A DNA stretch of 27,146 bases, from IMG/VR virus record IMGVR_UViG_3300045988_151853; one strand, 5' to 3'. The notes beneath the pieces were generated by a model, which had not been told where the DNA came from, did no database searches, and saw only the letters and a program-made list of their open reading frames with translations. Both the position numbers and the translations under genes were made by a program. Below, in pieces: positions 18,785 to 25,725 of this stretch. This stretch comes from a virus. Taxonomy: Duplodnaviria > Heunggongvirae > Uroviricota > Caudoviricetes. The stretch's first letter is position 1. Each line of letters starts with the position of its first letter.

Positions 18785-19543
18785 ATGCATCGTATAGACA
18801 CGAAAACCGCGCAGAAGGATAAGTTTGGCGCGGGTAAAAACGGTTTTACCCGTGGTAACCCCCAGACTGGCACGCCTGCCACCGATCTGGATGATGACTA
18901 CTTTGACATGTTGCAGGAGGAGCTTTGCAGCGTTGTAGAGGCATCCGGTGCCAGTCTCGAGAAGGCGCGGCACGACCAGCTGCTTACCGCGCTTCGTGCG
19001 CTGCTGTTAAGCCGCAAGAATCCGTTTGGTGATATCAAATCGGACGGCACAGTACCAACGGCTCTCGAAAACCTTGGTTTGGGAGAAGGTTCGGCATTAC
19101 CCGTTGGCGTGCCTGTTCCGTGGCCTTCCACCACTCCGCCAACAGGCTGGCTGAAATGCAACGGTGCGTTTTTTTCTGCTGAAGAATACCCGGAACTGGC
19201 AAAGGCTTATCCGACAAATAAATTGCCTGATTTACGAGGTGAATTTATTCGTGGCTGGGATGACGGGCGTGATGTTGATAGTGGACGCGCTTTATTAAGC
19301 GAACAACTTGACGCTATGCAAAATGTTACGGGTTCTCTGATTGATAACACTATGGGGTCAGCTTCCTCAGCATCTGGAGTTTTTAATGTTGGTTCTAGTT
19401 CTGGGGTTAAATATGCCGCTCCATCAACTGGTAATGCATTTAGTTACTATGGTGTGACACTTGATTTATCCAGGAGTGCAAGAACATCAGCAGAAACAAG
19501 GCCACGTAACATTGCATTTAACTACATTGTAAGGGCAGCATGA
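18785..19543 (+). CDS. stf: Tail fibre protein: constant N-terminal part (to about 19075) fused to the variable C-terminal cassette expressed in the current orientation
   Basis: 252-aa ORF; an invertase crossover site lies inside it at 19062-19087 (codons ...LENLGLGE...); the part downstream of the site is low-GC and Ser/Gly-rich. Confidence 0.8.
19062..19087. repeat. Invertase crossover site, left (hix/gix/pix-like): CTCTCGAAAACC-TT-GGTTTGGGAGAA
   Basis: 12-bp half-sites flanking a TT core, closely resembling the Hin hixL pattern TTCTTGAAAACC-AA-GGTTTTTGATAA as I recall it; in inverted orientation to the site at 20887-20912. Confidence 0.75.
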
Positions 19544-20151
19544 TGACCACAAAAAAAATCACTTTGGATGAAAACGGATTTGCCACAGAGGCTGGCTTCA
19601 TTACCGTTTACAACTACAACGGAGAAACGCGGGAATATATTTCCACATCAACTGAATATCTTACGGTTGGCGTCGGTATCCCGGCATGTTCTTGTTTAGA
19701 TGCACCAGTTACACATAAGGCTGGTTATGCAATCTGCCGTTCTGCAGATTTTAACTCATGGGAATATGTGCCAGACCATCGCGGTGAAATCGTCTTTAGC
19801 ACCGAAACAGGAGAATCAAAAGAAATCACAGCTCCGGGTGATTACCCTGATAATACAACCACTATCGCCCCGTTAACACCATACGATAAATGGGATGGTG
19901 AGAAATGGGTGACGGATACCGATGCACAGCATAGCGCCGCAGTAGATGCAGCAGAAGCACAACGCCAGTCGCTGATTGATACTGCAATGGCTTCCATCAG
20001 TCTGATTCAACTGAAATTACGGGCCGGACGGAATCTGACGCAGGCAGAAACCAGCCGACTTAACACGGTGCTGGATTACATTGACGCGGTGACGGCAACA
20101 GATACCAGCACCGCGCCGGATGTCATCTGGCCTGAACTGCCGGAGGAGTAG
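19540..20151 (+). CDS. tfa: Tail fibre assembly protein (expressed orientation)
   Basis: 203-aa ORF overlapping the stf stop (ATGATGA); conserved Tfa C-terminus ...[16 protein letters not shown]. Confidence 0.85.
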
Positions 20152-20566
20152 GCCATTCAATATCTGGTGCACTGGAAGTATCGACCAGCTCCAGTGCGTC
20201 CAGATAATCCAGCCACAAATTATATTGCGCCAGTTCCTCACCTTTCAGACGACCAATAGCCGCTTTACCAACCCATTGTCTACTGTTCATATAATCGTTG
20301 GCCTGATTAATCAATTGCTGCTTTTTAGTTTCGGCTGATGCAATTTGTTCTTCACGTGTTGGTGGATGAATATCTGCCCATGCAGGCAGTCCATCTTCTC
20401 CAACACATCTGTATTTTCCTTCTGGTGGTGTGTCATAGAAATATTCCCTGAAAATTACTTCGTCTATATCAACACCTTTTTCTTCAGGCCATTCACCTTT
20501 TTCAACATAAAGAGACTGAAGTTCGTAAGGATATGCCAGGTTGTTTACGTACAGATATTTCATCAT
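20123..20566 (-). CDS. Alternative tail fibre assembly protein (silent orientation)
   Basis: 147-aa minus-strand ORF with Tfa-like C-terminus ...[19 protein letters not shown]; its 3' end overlaps the plus-strand tfa 3' end; its start overlaps the stop of the alternative fibre cassette. Confidence 0.8.
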   Translation of the reverse strand: MMKYLYVNNLAYPYELQSLYVEKGEWPEEKGVDIDEVIFREYFYDTPPEGKYRCVGEDGLPAWADIHPPTREEQIASAETKKQQLINQANDYMNSRQWVGKAAIGRLKGEELAQYNLWLDYLDALELVDTSSAPDIEWPTPPAVQAR

Positions 20567-20900
20567 TACCAGCCCTTAGCGAAAAACGCACCACCTTCAA
20601 GACCATAATTGCAGTGAGCTATGAAGCCGGTAGTGCTCCAGTTGGTCGCCCCCCACATATTCCCGCCCCCGAAACCACCATCGCACACAATTACAATGCC
20701 CGGTGTCTGTGTAAATGGAATCGGGAATGAAACATTGGCGGATACAGGCCCGTGTTCACCAGGAAAACTAATTCGTCCCCACTGTTCAATTGAACCATCT
20801 GGCATTTTTCGCCAGCCTGAACCTGATGCATATGATGACATATCAGGTATCTGATTTTCCCCTGTTCCCACATTCCGTTTTGCCGCTTCTCCCAAACCAA
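20566..20900 (-). CDS. Alternative tail-fibre C-terminal cassette (Sv'), promoterless and lacking its N-terminus in this orientation
   Basis: The minus-strand frame reads ...[18 protein letters not shown]...FAKGW*; the GLGE codons lie in the right crossover site in the same frame as GLGE of stf, so inversion would fuse the constant stf N-terminus to this cassette. Confidence 0.7.
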
Positions 20901-20912
20901 CGTTTATGAAAA
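20887..20912. repeat. Invertase crossover site, right: TTCTCCCAAACC-AA-CGTTTATGAAAA
   Basis: Reverse complement TTTTCATAAACG-TT-GGTTTGGGAGAA matches the left site (half-site GGTTTGGGAGAA identical; core TT); lies 55 bp upstream of the invertase start. Confidence 0.75.
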
Positions 20913-20966
20913 TGCAGAAATAGCGCGCAAATGGCATCGTTCCTGTTTTTGTCAGGAGGAGCTATC

Positions 20967-21523
20967 ATGCTTATTGGCTATGTTCGCGTATCAACAAATG
21001 ACCAGAACACCGATCTACAACGTAATGCGTTGAACTGTGCAGGATGTGAGCTGATTTTTGAAGACAAGATAAGCGGTACAAAGTCCGACAGACCAGGACT
21101 GAAAAAGCTGCTCAGGACATTATCGGCAGGTGACACGCTGGTGGTCTGGAAACTGGACCGACTGGGGCGCAGTATGCGGCATCTTGTCGTGCTGGTGGAA
21201 GAGTTGCGCGAACGTGGCGTTAATTTTCGCAGCCTGACGGATGCTATTGATACCAGCACACCAATGGGGCGCTTTTTCTTTCATGTGATGGGTGCCCTGG
21301 CTGAAATGGAGCGAGAGTTTATTGTCGAACGTACTAGGGCGGCTTTGCCGCAGCACGACAAGAAGGGAGGAACGGTGGGCGAAAGCCAAAGCTGACAGTA
21401 GAACAATGGGGGCAGGCTGGCAGGTTGATTGAATCGGGAATATATCAGCAGCAAGTCGCACTGATTTATGATCTGGGTATTTCAACGGTGTATAAAAAAT
21501 TCCCTGTAGCAAGTAAACCATAG
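20967..21523 (+). pseudogene. pin: Pin/Gin/Hin-family serine DNA invertase, interrupted by an apparent -1 frameshift near 21338-21342
   Basis: Frame 3 from ATG 20967 gives MLIGYVRVSTNDQNTDLQRNAL...FIVERTRA (resolvase/invertase catalytic domain with the catalytic Ser in YVRVST), then runs into unrelated residues and stops at 21395. Frame 2 (21338-21523) encodes the expected continuation GFAAARQEGRNGGRKPKLTVEQWGQAGRLIESG...ISTVYKKFP (HTH domain). AGGAGG RBS upstream of 20967. Confidence 0.75.
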
Positions 21524-21549: not shown

Positions 21550-22245
21550 TTATGCACTATTTTTAGGTCTTGTAACCCGAGGTGGGAGTTGTTTGGTTAT
21601 ATGTTCAAGTGATTTTTTGCCCAAGATAGTTCTTTGGACAAAACTTTCTATAGCTTCTAGCATTTGTTCGAACTCACTTTTATTCGGGCTCCAACTGCGA
21701 TGTGCGGCGGCGTTTCCTGCATCAATTACTGAAGATATAACGCATGCCTCAGTGTCGCCTATGACTCCATCTTGTTTTAATTTTTCAACTTTTTCACCAA
21801 GCGGCAAACCGGGGTGAATTTGTAACAGTTCAGCAGTTCGATCAAAAATCGTCCGTAAACCGATGGACGAAAGAATGAAATGGTCAGAAGTATATGAAGA
21901 ATACATTTCATTAAATATTTGAAAGAGCTGACGATCAACTGATTCAAGCTTGGATAACCATATCGGAGCTTGAAATGTTTCAGCGGCAGGATAGGTAGTG
22001 ATCATATCTATAGGCGTTTCTACAAATTCACCATCACGATATTCGTGGGTAGTATGCTCACTGAAGTGTTCGTTGTGGTGATAGAAGACAGTATCACAGC
22101 CATTGCATTGGAGTAGGTGATGGTAATGGTACCCATAAACTGGATATTGGGAATCCTCCCAGCTAGTGGTTAGCTTCCCATGCACAGTGCAGTTACGTAA
22201 CCCACCGCATGTAGGGCAAAGAGCCTTGAGTATTTCCTTTTTCAT
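21550..22245 (-). CDS. Zinc-ribbon protein with DUF4145-like C-terminal domain (candidate accessory/defence gene)
   Basis: 231-aa minus-strand ORF. N-terminus has CPTC...C and CNGC plus His-rich stretches (Zn-ribbon-like); C-terminus ...LGEKVEKLKQDGVIGDTEACVISSVIDAGNAAAHRSWSPNKSEFEQMLEAIESFVQ resembles the GNxxAH-containing DUF4145 helical domain as I recall it. Low GC; sits where e14 carries mcrA, next to pin. Confidence 0.5.
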   Translation of the reverse strand: MKKEILKALCPTCGGLRNCTVHGKLTTSWEDSQYPVYGYHYHHLLQCNGCDTVFYHHNEHFSEHTTHEYRDGEFVETPIDMITTYPAAETFQAPIWLSKLESVDRQLFQIFNEMYSSYTSDHFILSSIGLRTIFDRTAELLQIHPGLPLGEKVEKLKQDGVIGDTEACVISSVIDAGNAAAHRSWSPNKSEFEQMLEAIESFVQRTILGKKSLEHITKQLPPRVTRPKNSA

Positions 22246-22593: not shown

Positions 22594-22842
22594 TTAGTGA
22601 ACAAACCACTCGTCAGCAGATTCCCAGGTATCTTTCAGAGTCTCCTGAACAAAAGTTTTTGCAGAATCCTTATCTGCGGTGCGTGTAACAGAAAGGCCAT
22701 CATTGCTGGTGGCTTTTACTAACACCTCAACATCGTCATAACGCTTACTGATGCGTCGGGTTAATTCTTCCTTTAACGCATCCACAGCACCGGTTGGCAT
22801 TTTAGTCATTTTTTCTTTGGCTATGCAGATTTCAATACGCAT
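22594..22842 (-). CDS. dinI: DinI-family protein (SOS-regulated; DinI/Tum-like)
   Basis: 82-aa product [31 protein letters not shown]...[11 protein letters not shown] aligns well with E. coli DinI (MRIEVTIAK...AIDALAGELSRRI...ETWESADDWFV) as I recall it; strong GGAGGGA RBS; tandem LexA boxes upstream. Confidence 0.85.
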
Positions 22843-22855
22843 AAAAGTCCCTCCA

Positions 22856-22907
22856 TACTGTGTTTGTATACAGTATTATTTTTAACTGTATGGATAAACA
22901 GTGTCAA
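22856..22907 (-). promoter_or_regulatory. SOS-regulated promoter: -35 TTGACA, 17-nt spacer, -10 TAAAAA, with two LexA boxes (22858-22873 and 22886-22901)
   Basis: Minus strand reads TTGACA-CTGTttatccatACAGt-TAAAAA...taCTGTatacaaacACAGta...GGAGGGActtttATG. Both boxes fit CTGT-N8-ACAG; the downstream one matches the 20-bp consensus ends TACTGT...ACAGTA. Confidence 0.75.
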
Positions 22908-24001
22908 GAGGTCTTATTTCTGCTCCTTTGGAGCTCTTCAAAACGATTATGTAAAGATTTCGGATACAGTTCGGTATATACCTGCCATAGCACGTTTAAT
23001 GAACGATGCCCTGTAACCTGGGCGACTTCCTCAATACTAAAACCAGCCTCAAATAAGCGACTTGCCCCTTCTCTACGCAAATCATGGTATCGCAGATCCT
23101 TAATACCTAATTTGCTTCTTACTCTCTGAAATCCCGCAGTAACAGAAGTGCTGTTATATGGAAAAATGAATTCCGATTTTTGGGGCTGTCGTTGGACGAT
23201 ATCCCAGGCTTCCCCAAGCAAGGCTACTTTCATGTGGTTGCCTTCCTTTTTGCGTGGATCTTTCCTGTCTCTTACGAGTATAGATTTTTGTTCCTGGTCG
23301 AGATCTTCCCATCGTAACCGGCATACTTCTCCGATTCGCATACAGGACCATACAGAAAATTTGAGGATATCAACGAACGGAATTTTTGAGCATTTATGAG
23401 TAGATCGTTGTTGAAGGCCTGCAATGAGCATGTCCAGTTCATCAGATGCTGGTCTACGATTACGACGGTTTGATTTACCAATCAAACCAAGTTTAAGTAG
23501 ATATGGGCGAGCGCTTTTCGCCGGGTTTGATGTGTAATTAATTCCGTATACAGGTTTGGCCGCATCCAGAACACTGCCAAGATAACTAACATCGTGGCTG
23601 ACTGTTGCTGGACCTGCACCAGCGTTGTTTCTTAGCCTGCAATGTTCAATTACGTCATTTTCTGTCAGTTCAGATAGTTTGATCGCGGAGATGTCACTAT
23701 CCATAAGCAGTTCCAGCACATATCTTTTAGTACGGCCTGCTTTACCTCCGGCATTTGGGTCATTTAAATATTTGTGTAGTAAGTCACGGACTGTAAGTCC
23801 GTCAACTGCATTTGATGATGGAATGCCATATAGATCTAATTCCATCACTTTCTGTGTGCCCCATGTTTTGGCATGAGCATGTTTAGGGAATGTTTTGCTT
23901 TCCCTGTAAGTGATAACACCTTTTTCTTTGATAATCACATTACAGCGATAGCGTGGTGTGCCATCGGATTTTAGTCGTTTCTCTATGTTATAGTACGCCA
24001 T
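22904..24001 (-). CDS. int: Tyrosine-type site-specific integrase
   Basis: 365-aa minus-strand ORF with an integrase catalytic region (...SCMRIGEVCRLRWEDLD..., ...LRYHDLRREGASRL..., ...VTGHRSLNVLWQVYTELY...) carrying R, H-x-x-R and Tyr motifs; GAGG RBS. Confidence 0.9.
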   Translation of the reverse strand: MAYYNIEKRLKSDGTPRYRCNVIIKEKGVITYRESKTFPKHAHAKTWGTQKVMELDLYGIPSSNAVDGLTVRDLLHKYLNDPNAGGKAGRTKRYVLELLMDSDISAIKLSELTENDVIEHCRLRNNAGAGPATVSHDVSYLGSVLDAAKPVYGINYTSNPAKSARPYLLKLGLIGKSNRRNRRPASDELDMLIAGLQQRSTHKCSKIPFVDILKFSVWSCMRIGEVCRLRWEDLDQEQKSILVRDRKDPRKKEGNHMKVALLGEAWDIVQRQPQKSEFIFPYNSTSVTAGFQRVRSKLGIKDLRYHDLRREGASRLFEAGFSIEEVAQVTGHRSLNVLWQVYTELYPKSLHNRFEELQRSRNKTS

Positions 24002-24020: not shown

Positions 24021-24255
24021 GGGTTCCCATAAAACGTGGGAACCTGTGCGGGAACCTAACGCGAGAAAAATAGCCTGAAATGTTCAAAAATGCACGATAA
24101 TCATGAAACACAAAAAATTAATCAAACCAGCGTGATGCCTGAAAAAACTGGTGTTTACTGGAATTCTCGGTTTAGCATTGCTCCTATGCTCGATAGGATG
24201 TACCGTTTTTGAAAAACAAGTAGTTATACACTTTGTGGGAGCCTATTGGGAACCT
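24021..24255. repeat. Clustered 8-bp GGGAACCT repeats upstream of int (possible Int arm-type or operator sites)
   Basis: GGGTTCCC at 24021-24028, GGGAACCT at 24038-24045 and 24050-24057, GGGAGCCT at 24238-24245, GGGAACCT at 24248-24255: two clusters about 200 bp apart in an AT-rich intergenic region. Confidence 0.4.
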
Positions 24256-24334
24256 GTTATTCTTAGAAAGCATCATTTGCTCATCACTTCAATTGACCTA
24301 GCGTAGGTGAAGACTTTAAGATTGCAGGAGGCGG

Positions 24335-24916
24335 ATGCGGTTGCATTTGCCAGAGCTTGACGATGTTGTTTGGATGAAGGGTGTATTGATGCTAAATGTA
24401 AGGTTTGATTCAGAAAAGGCTTTAGAGGCCATTCTGTACGTCGCCTCTAAAGCACCGATCCCAGATATCTATCATGTCGGAAAAATTCTTTATTATGCTG
24501 ACAGGTTTCACCTTGAAAGTTTTGGACGCCTCATAACGGGCGATCACTATAACGCTATGAAGGATGGGCCTGTAGCAAGCAACACATACGATATTATAAA
24601 AATTGCTCGTGGAGATGGACGTTACATTCCTAATGGTTGTGATGTCGATTCTGTGCGAAAAGCATTTTCTGTATCAGGTATGATGATTGTGCCGAGCCGT
24701 GAAGCTGATGAAGACTTTTTTAGTGACTCAGATTTAGAGTGTATTGATAAGTCTATCGCGATGCTTGGAAACATGTCCTTTGAAGCTATCAGAACCATGA
24801 GCCATGACGCGGCATGGGAACAGGCAGATCACAATGGTGAGATGTCTTTGGAATCGATAGTTGCACAGCTAAAAAATAGCAAATTAATACTGGATTATCT
24901 GAAGAACGGATATTGA
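24335..24916 (+). CDS. Panacea-domain (DUF4065, SocA/GepA-like) protein, candidate antitoxin
   Basis: 193-aa product with ...EAILYVASKAPIPDIYHVGKILYYADRFHLESFGRLITGDHYNAMKDGPVASNTY... and ...SFEAIRTMSHDAAWEQA..., matching the Panacea/DUF4065 pattern (KLxYYAD ... GPV ... THxxxxW) as I recall it. AGGAGG RBS; the start could instead be ATG 24374 or 24389. Confidence 0.65.
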   Translation: MRLHLPELDDVVWMKGVLMLNVRFDSEKALEAILYVASKAPIPDIYHVGKILYYADRFHLESFGRLITGDHYNAMKDGPVASNTYDIIKIARGDGRYIPNGCDVDSVRKAFSVSGMMIVPSREADEDFFSDSDLECIDKSIAMLGNMSFEAIRTMSHDAAWEQADHNGEMSLESIVAQLKNSKLILDYLKNGY

Positions 24917-24921
24917 TACTT

Positions 24922-25383
24922 ATGCTGGGTGATTGTTTCCCTCCTGATTTTAAGGCTAATTTTAGTCGTGAAAGAGGTATATCACCCGGTGATGTATTGT
25001 ATCTTCATTGTGATTTTACGACCCCACCTAAAGTAAAATATATGGTGGTTGTTTGCTGTGAACCTCTTTTAGTTCTTCTAATAAATTCAGATATAAATGA
25101 ATTTATTAAGAGAAACAATGATCTTATGGCTTGTCAGGTCGAAATTAATAGAGAGGACCATGATTTTCTTAAATGGGACTCATTTGTTAATTGCATTGAG
25201 GCTCATGCTGCTTTCGATCTTGAAATTATTAAAGAGAAAATAGCCATCCAATATGGCGACGTGCTAAAAGGTCGCATTACAGATCATTGTATGAGACAAG
25301 TTCGATGTGCAGTTGAGATATCTAAAATCATGGTTAAACGGCATAAAAAACTGATACTCGCTGCTCTTCAACATTATGAATAA
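24922..25383 (+). CDS. Hypothetical protein overlapping or abutting the Panacea-domain gene (candidate toxin/effector partner)
   Basis: 153-aa ORF from ATG 24922 (the track lists TTG 24913, overlapping the upstream stop by 4 nt); AT-rich; I recognise no family; followed by a bidirectional terminator. Confidence 0.45.
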   Translation: MLGDCFPPDFKANFSRERGISPGDVLYLHCDFTTPPKVKYMVVVCCEPLLVLLINSDINEFIKRNNDLMACQVEINREDHDFLKWDSFVNCIEAHAAFDLEIIKEKIAIQYGDVLKGRITDHCMRQVRCAVEISKIMVKRHKKLILAALQHYE

Positions 25384-25403
25384 ACCCACCTTTGGATGGG
25401 TTT
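25382..25403. terminator. Bidirectional stem-loop terminator between convergent genes
   Basis: AAACCCA (25382-25388), 8-nt loop, TGGGTTT (25397-25403), placed between the stop of the plus-strand gene (25383) and the stop of the minus-strand PrtN-like gene (25417). Confidence 0.5.
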
Positions 25404-25416
25404 ATTCATATTCTAT

Positions 25417-25689
25417 TTAAATGAGCCTTTGTTTATGGGTTCTGACCCTTTCCCACTCAGCACGCCCTTCTTCTCGCCTTTTGTCTATGTATTCCGCAAG
25501 ATCCTGAATATTGATGCAACGTTTTGCTTTTTGTGATGTGCCGATGCGATATGTTGGAACGGGCAACTTACAAGCGTTTGCTTTTGCTTCTGCCGTGGCT
25601 GGACTCATGCCAAAGTACTTTTGGCTAACTGCTGAGAGTTCAATGTTAGGGGTATTGAATTCAGCCATCAGTAAAAACAAGGTGTTCAT
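25417..25689 (-). CDS. PrtN-family / excisionase-like DNA-binding protein
   Basis: Product MNTLFLLMAEFNTPNIELSAVSQKYFGMSP...LPVPTYRIGTSQKAKRCINIQDLAEYIDKRREEG resembles the pyocin activator PrtN family (MNTVFLLMAQY...) found next to int in lambdoid prophages. ATG 25689 with GGAG 6 nt upstream is preferred over the listed GTG 25716. Confidence 0.6.
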   Translation of the reverse strand: MNTLFLLMAEFNTPNIELSAVSQKYFGMSPATAEAKANACKLPVPTYRIGTSQKAKRCINIQDLAEYIDKRREEGRAEWERVRTHKQRLI

Positions 25690-25725
25690 AATTTTCTCCA
25701 TCAAAACCGGCTGCACCCGGGAAAA

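Follow-up and report, generated by a model that had tools for sequence, protein, structure and literature searches.

A Panacea gene and a MazF-fold partner of PanT cluster T5 beside the attachment site of a dusA-integrating Escherichia coli phage: a probable type II toxin–antitoxin moron

Toxin–antitoxin (TA) modules whose antitoxin carries a Panacea domain were brought together in a survey of Panacea gene neighbourhoods that defined 88 toxin clusters (Kurata et al. 2022, PNAS; PMC8832971). Two MazF-like toxins (PanTs) of that survey, T6 of P. moraviensis and T25 of B. ruminantium, are validated TA toxins that block translation, and a complex with the antitoxin (PanA) was shown for the P. moraviensis T6 pair (PMC8832971). 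Direct neutralisation by stand-alone Panacea antitoxins has also been reported, together with the proposal of a possible sensor role for Panacea (Ernits et al. 2023; PMC10440598). Here we analyse a pair of this kind, panA and panT, in a 27,146-nucleotide (nt) stretch of virus DNA (Caudoviricetes; IMG/VR virus record IMGVR_UViG_3300045988_151853), the whole of which we call the window. The list of open reading frames of the window places both genes on the plus strand, at the positions given in a preliminary description made from the sequence alone. We consider it likely that the pair is a type II PanAT moron, in which a MazF-fold toxin, probably ribonucleolytic, would be neutralised by a directly binding stand-alone Panacea antitoxin. 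The two genes are:

24335–24916 (probable start ATG 24389), plus strand: panA, a putative stand-alone Panacea-domain antitoxin (Pfam PF13274; RefSeq name; homologues; AlphaFold model)

24922–25383, plus strand: panT, a 153-residue toxin candidate with a MazF/Kid-type barrel and N- and C-terminal helices, of PanT cluster T5

The pair has the marks by which PanAT systems are recognised: a Panacea/DUF4065 domain, two same-strand genes at most 100 nt apart, and a partner in a catalogued PanT cluster. Like the validated T6 and T25 pairs, it places the Panacea antitoxin gene first and the MazF-fold toxin gene second. The T6 and T25 toxins, however, belong to other clusters, and T25 is recognisable as PemK in Pfam and the Conserved Domain Database (CDD), whereas the panT family matches no Pfam model and has about 40 extra residues of helices. 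In MazEF, Kid–Kis and PemIK the antitoxin is a MazE/Kis (PemI) protein of AbrB or ribbon–helix–helix (RHH) type, where this locus has a Panacea protein, and the toxins of those systems share no detectable sequence similarity with PanT. The type III abortive-infection RNases ToxIN, AbiQ and CptIN have RNA-repeat antitoxins, none of which is present at this pair, and their structural match to PanT is much weaker than that of MazF. SocAB, a type VI TA system of Caulobacter, resembles the pair in that SocA has a Panacea domain, as PanA does. We rejected a SocAB reading: PanA scores 17.1 bits against the NCBIfam SocA equivalog NF047745, far below its cutoff of 190, its partner has a MazF fold and is not SocB-like, and no ClpXP-adaptor mechanism is implied.

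The first gene had been described as carrying a clear Panacea/DUF4065 signature, and this is borne out. Its 193-residue translation from 24335 matches Pfam SocA_Panacea (PF13274) over residues 50–161 with E=6.8e-20 and 72.5 bits against a cutoff of 25.7, and an identical protein stands in RefSeq as 'Panacea domain-containing protein' (WP_001547985.1). Neither Pfam nor the AlphaFold model, which has a predicted local distance difference test (pLDDT) score of 92.7, shows any extra domain. The start is uncertain: AGGAGG stands just 3 nt ahead of ATG 24335. Essentially all of the 100 homologues found, most of them 175–180 residues long, begin at the equivalent of M19, which is encoded by ATG 24389 and would give a protein of 175 residues, and residues 1–20 are the sole low-confidence part of the model. 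We take ATG 24389, with its 175-residue product, as the likely true start.

The second gene begins at ATG 24922, 5 nt past the panA stop, and ends at 25383; an alternative in-frame start, TTG 24913, would produce a 4-nt overlap with panA. The preliminary description had the gene right in its length (153 residues), its abutting or overlapping position and its AT-richness, the GC content being 33–37% against 42–50% in the flanks. The protein has no match in Pfam, NCBIfam or PADLOC, and its family has a single weak match in PHROGs, to a group of unknown function. The family itself is large. A word-index search found 41 clusters of related 'hypothetical proteins' of 148–157 residues from Enterobacterales, Idiomarina and metagenomes, and an exhaustive profile search reached 1243 representatives (at 50% identity) at E<=1e-3, with 624 at E<=1e-10, nearly all about 150 residues long and matching over the full length. 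A comparison of 97 diverse members shows no variation at K39 and S87, and at least 90% conservation of G23, F32, N55, S56, Q72, F82, L83 and C91.

AlphaFold models PanT as a small β-barrel with added N- and C-terminal helices (pLDDT 89.8; predicted template modelling (pTM) score 0.83). The preliminary description had proposed Foldseek searches with both proteins. That with the PanA model found no significant match in the PDB; that with the PanT model returned a single significant family, namely RNA-bound MazF-mt3 (E=8e-4, probability 1.0). By this comparison PanT is predicted to have a MazF-type SH3-like barrel fold. Catalysis by E. coli MazF involves R29, a basic residue where strand 2 begins, and T52, a position taken by Thr or Ser where strand 3 ends. 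Judged by place in the secondary structure and not by a residue-level structural alignment, the PanT residues K39, close to the beginning of strand 2, and N55–S56, at the end of strand 3, would take the places of the catalytic Arg and Thr of MazF. We also considered ToxN/AbiQ-type and CcdB-type identities for PanT and set them aside, as their structural scores rank below MazF.

The preliminary description recognised no family for the second gene and suggested a novel effector. The former holds for Pfam, NCBIfam and PADLOC and fails against the published catalogue, and with it the suggestion of novelty falls. In Dataset S1 of PMC8832971, Photorhabdus heterorhabditis WP_054475897.1 is listed in PanT cluster T5, paired with PanA WP_054475899.1 in the order antitoxin–toxin with a 3-nt gap; as at our locus, the listed PanA has no N-terminal domain and lies directly upstream of the toxin. 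WP_054475897.1 (P0059) shares a 90% cluster with P0033, which is 53% identical to PanT (E=6e-50), and it is because this Photorhabdus relative is listed there that PanT is linked to T5. PanT adds a member to the catalogued T5 family and is no new kind of effector. Neither of the E. coli accessions, WP_001547985.1 or WP_001547986.1, turned up in the available portions of the supplements of Kurata et al. 2022 and Ernits et al. 2023.

For the T5 representative, PMC8832971 gives HHpred probabilities of 99.5% for EndoA/MazF and 98.5% for CcdB. A barrel shared by CcdB and MazF could also belong to a TA module whose toxin is not an RNase and has another target, for example by poisoning gyrase as CcdB does, or by acting on another protein or nucleic acid. 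The HHpred figures name both families, with EndoA/MazF first, and the structural search of the PDB returned MazF-mt3 as its one significant family. We regard a toxin with such another target as unlikely, and continue to prefer a MazF-fold RNase.

Several results weigh against the reading of the pair as a PanAT moron with a MazF-fold RNase. A Pfam scan of 28 and of 97 PanT relatives produced no match, PemK_toxin (PF02452) included; profile searches of PDB sequences with two alignments of the family returned nothing meaningful; and hhalign comparisons of the family with E. coli MazF were negative (probability <2%) in both local and global mode, whether MazF was given as one sequence or as an alignment of 23. 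Because these sequence-level tests of our own were negative, PanT is connected to MazF through the comparison of folds and through the published HHpred result. In the family we see no evident counterpart of the canonical catalytic Arg of MazF. Neither protein of the pair matches PADLOC-DB v2 at E<=1, and a defence role is therefore conjecture. Promoter-like sites are not enriched over shuffled sequences, and the candidate ahead of panA (24293–24322) is no better than chance expectation. Lastly, a T5 pair from Chryseobacterium bovis was assayed in E. coli, where its toxin, classed as MazF, was toxic (SI Table S1 of PMC8832971), and where its PanA gave no rescue and was itself toxic. This is the only T5 pair assayed, and it is a distant member of T5.

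The C. bovis result also speaks for a non-classical pair, in which Panacea would be mainly a sensor or partner, the two proteins would form an obligate two-component effector, or PanT would be a non-toxic accessory. Ernits et al. 2023 (PMC10440598), who favour a sensory role for Panacea, lend this some weight, but they also report direct neutralisation by stand-alone Panacea, and the PanA described here has no extra domain. The antitoxin-first order, the tight coupling of the genes and the decay of the toxin gene beside an intact PanA, described below, fit a TA module. We judge a non-classical pair to be quite unlikely, and retain direct neutralisation of PanT by PanA as the more plausible arrangement.

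The conservation of the gene neighbourhood, which the preliminary description had proposed to survey, speaks clearly. We collected 28 loci with a panT homologue from 11 genera (Escherichia, Enterobacter, Klebsiella, Cronobacter, Erwinia, Rahnella, Photorhabdus, Proteus, Morganella, Serratia and Idiomarina) and metagenomes. In 28/28 loci the next gene upstream, on the same strand, encodes a PanA homologue; the spacing of intact pairs ranges from −8 to +42 nt, and the two proteins have diverged to a similar degree (40–63% identity to the window protein for PanA, 42–60% for PanT). This pairing is far beyond chance, and nothing else is conserved around the pair in the 28 loci. The pair is found at the attL end of dusA prophages in E. 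coli and Enterobacter, next to int and dusA in Morganella, in the P2 gpA–portal hotspot beside an AbiJ-like gene in Rahnella, in the NinG–holin gap in Cronobacter, in tail modules in Klebsiella and Erwinia, and beside a tailspike in Klebsiella. Further pairs lie in integrative islands, one of them adjoining a ParE/HTH pair, and 35 IMG/VR viral contigs carry the pair.

In several Photorhabdus genomes a frameshifted or truncated toxin gene stands beside an intact PanA, and truncated toxin alleles also occur in E. coli (P0044, P0049). With copies from Serratia and a metagenome-assembled genome counted in (together with Photorhabdus, L019, L020, L022–L025), the frameshifted, truncated or N-terminally shortened toxin genes usually lie beside an intact PanA. 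This pattern suggests that the toxin gene is recurrently inactivated, and decay of the toxin beside an intact PanA would be expected of a gene with a harmful product. Truncated alleles might also be taken as a sign that the two reading frames are chance or decaying junk without function. We find that scarcely credible, since both proteins are conserved in full length, at identities as low as about 40%, in several gammaproteobacterial genera and far more widely by profile search, and since both have confident folds and strict synteny; conservation already refutes it.

The position of this TA module candidate in its carrier is defined by the following features:

22904–24001, minus strand: tyrosine integrase (int) of the dusA-targeting type (Pfam Phage_integrase, E=8.4e-21; beside a dusA-like 5' fragment)

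24037–24047, 24236–24246 and 24247–24257 (also 24049–24059, of TGGGAACCTGT type), plus strand: TGGGAACCTGT repeats flanking the core of the phage attachment site attP, found by a repeat search

24090–24212, plus strand: mimic of the dusA 5' end in the attP region, 40 codons (...RFSIAPMLD, stop), placed by attL alignment, RefSeq annotation and a dusA match

25417–25716, minus strand: PrtN-family gene, excisionase-like (xis) (Pfam PyocinActivator, E=3.9e-23)

By its sequence the carrier is a temperate E. coli myovirus of SfI/SfII-like type with dusA as its integration site. Its integrase gene is transcribed divergently from the mimic, which duplicates the 5' end of dusA and encodes MHDNHETQKINQTSVMPEKTGVYWNSRFSIAPMLDRMYRF followed by a stop. 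Window positions 24150–24193 are 100% identical to an annotated dusA gene. Against the attL of E. coli 730V1 the window is identical rightwards from about 24187 (ATGCTCGAT...), with only partial dusA-like similarity leftwards, and the crossover core would lie at about 24187–24195 (ATGCTCGAT). The TGGGAACCTGT repeats are candidate arm-type sites of the integrase. Elements with dusA-specific integrases bring a replacement dusA 5' end beside int, with the host 5' end that they displace as the mark of their far boundary (Farrugia et al. 2015; PMC4482086). That is exactly the arrangement of the window and of its lysogens; it concerns the carrier phage and not the pair. The mEp460 homologue of the PrtN-family gene bears an excisionase annotation, as in related phages.

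Of 5426 complete E. coli genomes, 46 carry the pair in full at >=98% identity. In these lysogens a truncated host dusA 5' fragment, annotated in RefSeq at the same place as a truncated tRNA-dihydrouridine synthase, directly precedes the pair, with the host genes lexA, dinF and zur upstream, and the integrase is not adjacent. We read the window as the attP configuration, excised or packaged, in the order int, attP, pair, xis. Since attP separates int from the pair, the pair is at the attL end in lysogens and int at the opposite end. The preliminary description, which lacked the attP site (dusA 5' mimic, 24090–24212) between int and the pair, placed the pair between int and xis; this is true of the attP configuration in the window and not of lysogens. 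Integration would rebuild dusA at attR; at attL, the displaced 5' fragment of the host gene would come to stand immediately ahead of panA. In the lysogen the pair is the outermost, first operon at attL. The host dusA promoter reads along the same strand, the dusA fragment lies about 120 nt ahead of the pair, and no terminator is predicted between the fragment and panA.

Alignment of the attL-proximal region across strains delimits the unit that carries the pair:

24263–25436, plus strand: exchangeable cassette of promoter region, panA, panT and terminator (three-way alignments with O157-type and YafO-type cassettes)

24293–24322, plus strand: sigma-70-like promoter candidate (TTGACC, 18 nt, TAAGAT; consensus scan, 9/12 matches)

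25375–25410, plus strand: intrinsic-terminator-like hairpin between the convergent panT and xis (14-bp stem, −19.5 kcal/mol)

The limits of the cassette, at about 24263 and 25436, leave the conserved attP arm on one side and the 3' end of xis on the other, and the slot is bordered by a conserved attL arm (...TGGGAACC). Its flanks are matched by 742 E. coli genomes, only 46 of which have this pair. In O157:H7 and many other strains the same slot holds genes for hypothetical proteins of 177 and 57 residues (180-PT54, L009:489-1392), and in other strains genes for a 179-residue hypothetical protein and, behind it, a YafO-family toxin (Pfam E=1.9e-21; UTME-12, L010:545-1535). In both alternative cassettes the upstream protein matches nothing in Pfam or PADLOC; these upstream proteins could be uncharacterised antitoxins or defence genes. 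The hairpin at 25375–25410, which had been noticed in the preliminary description as a terminator of the pair's own, is strong (z=-4.8 against shuffles) and belongs to the cassette, and the alternative cassettes carry their own, different hairpins at that place. This exchange of cassettes with their own terminators in one slot supports the acquired-moron layout proposed earlier, as does the conserved and mobile two-gene character of the module.

A phage-borne cassette could also serve counter-defence during lytic growth, with PanA as a decoy antitoxin against MazF-type defence toxins of the host, and phage antitoxin mimics such as T4 Dmd are known (cited in PMC8832971). We hold this to be very unlikely. 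In the 28 loci PanA never occurs without an adjacent cognate T5-type gene, the same pair is also found in non-phage integrative islands, and a strand opposite to the early-left operon together with an own terminator is the typical layout of a moron expressed from the prophage.

A TA or abortive-infection module, as the preliminary description proposed, is still the best reading of the locus, given the Panacea protein, the MazF fold and the strict pairing. From these observations we infer the following course of events. The two genes would be co-transcribed and translationally coupled, antitoxin first. PanT, as a T5 toxin, would most likely be a sequence-specific endoribonuclease that halts translation, and PanA would bind and neutralise it directly. 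The cassette would be expressed in the lysogen from its own promoter and possibly also by read-through from the host dusA promoter; such expression is possible because the pair lies at attL, on the same strand behind the dusA fragment. The likely benefit would be an abortive-infection-type defence of the lysogen against other phages, retention of the prophage, or both.

A more far-reaching version of this mechanism is doubtful, though we think it worth stating. Here the cassette would be an abortive-infection system of the prophage, in which Panacea would sense an infecting phage and release a MazF-fold RNase with a non-canonical Lys/Ser active site. Integration would bring the attP-adjacent cassette under the host dusA promoter and so make it lysogen-specific, and the slot between attL and xis in dusA prophages would be an unrecognised hotspot for exchangeable cassettes of defence or TA genes that includes the O157 and YafO cassettes.

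Other parts of the carrier also drew our attention. Just downstream of int lies a DinI-family gene (22594–22842, minus strand, E=1.1e-19), and a Morganella prophage (L032) shows the same order of resolvase, DinI, panAT, int and dusA. Between dinI and the tail-fibre module, a gene for a 231-residue DUF4145-domain protein (21550–22245, minus strand, E=8.8e-10) has no PADLOC match; it is a possible second candidate for a moron or defence gene. Further left, a 20-nt inverted repeat (19069–19088 and 20886–20905; 95% complementary, AAACC..GGTTT core) encloses two opposed tail-fibre-assembly genes and an alternative fibre C-terminus (features 19540–20937 and 20931–21395). An adjoining serine recombinase has a Resolvase domain (E=7e-49) and is 154 residues only, possibly truncated, and the likeness to phages SfI and SfII ends exactly at 19088. 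This arrangement looks like an invertible tail-fibre segment.

The probable PanAT moron described here introduces no new principle: the combination of Panacea with a MazF-like toxin is already published, and the family is already catalogued. Three features are worth keeping: the large Pfam-less T5 family, the placement next to attP, by which integration sets the cassette behind the dusA promoter of the host, and the fact that cassettes are exchanged in this slot. If confirmed experimentally, the pair would be the first working example of a large Pfam-less T5 MazF-fold family (more than 1200 representatives at 50% identity), and this example would sit in E. coli on an inducible phage, where it is easy to study. 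It would also test Panacea antitoxins as phage sensors, and the attL-proximal slot of dusA prophages as a hotspot of defence cassettes.
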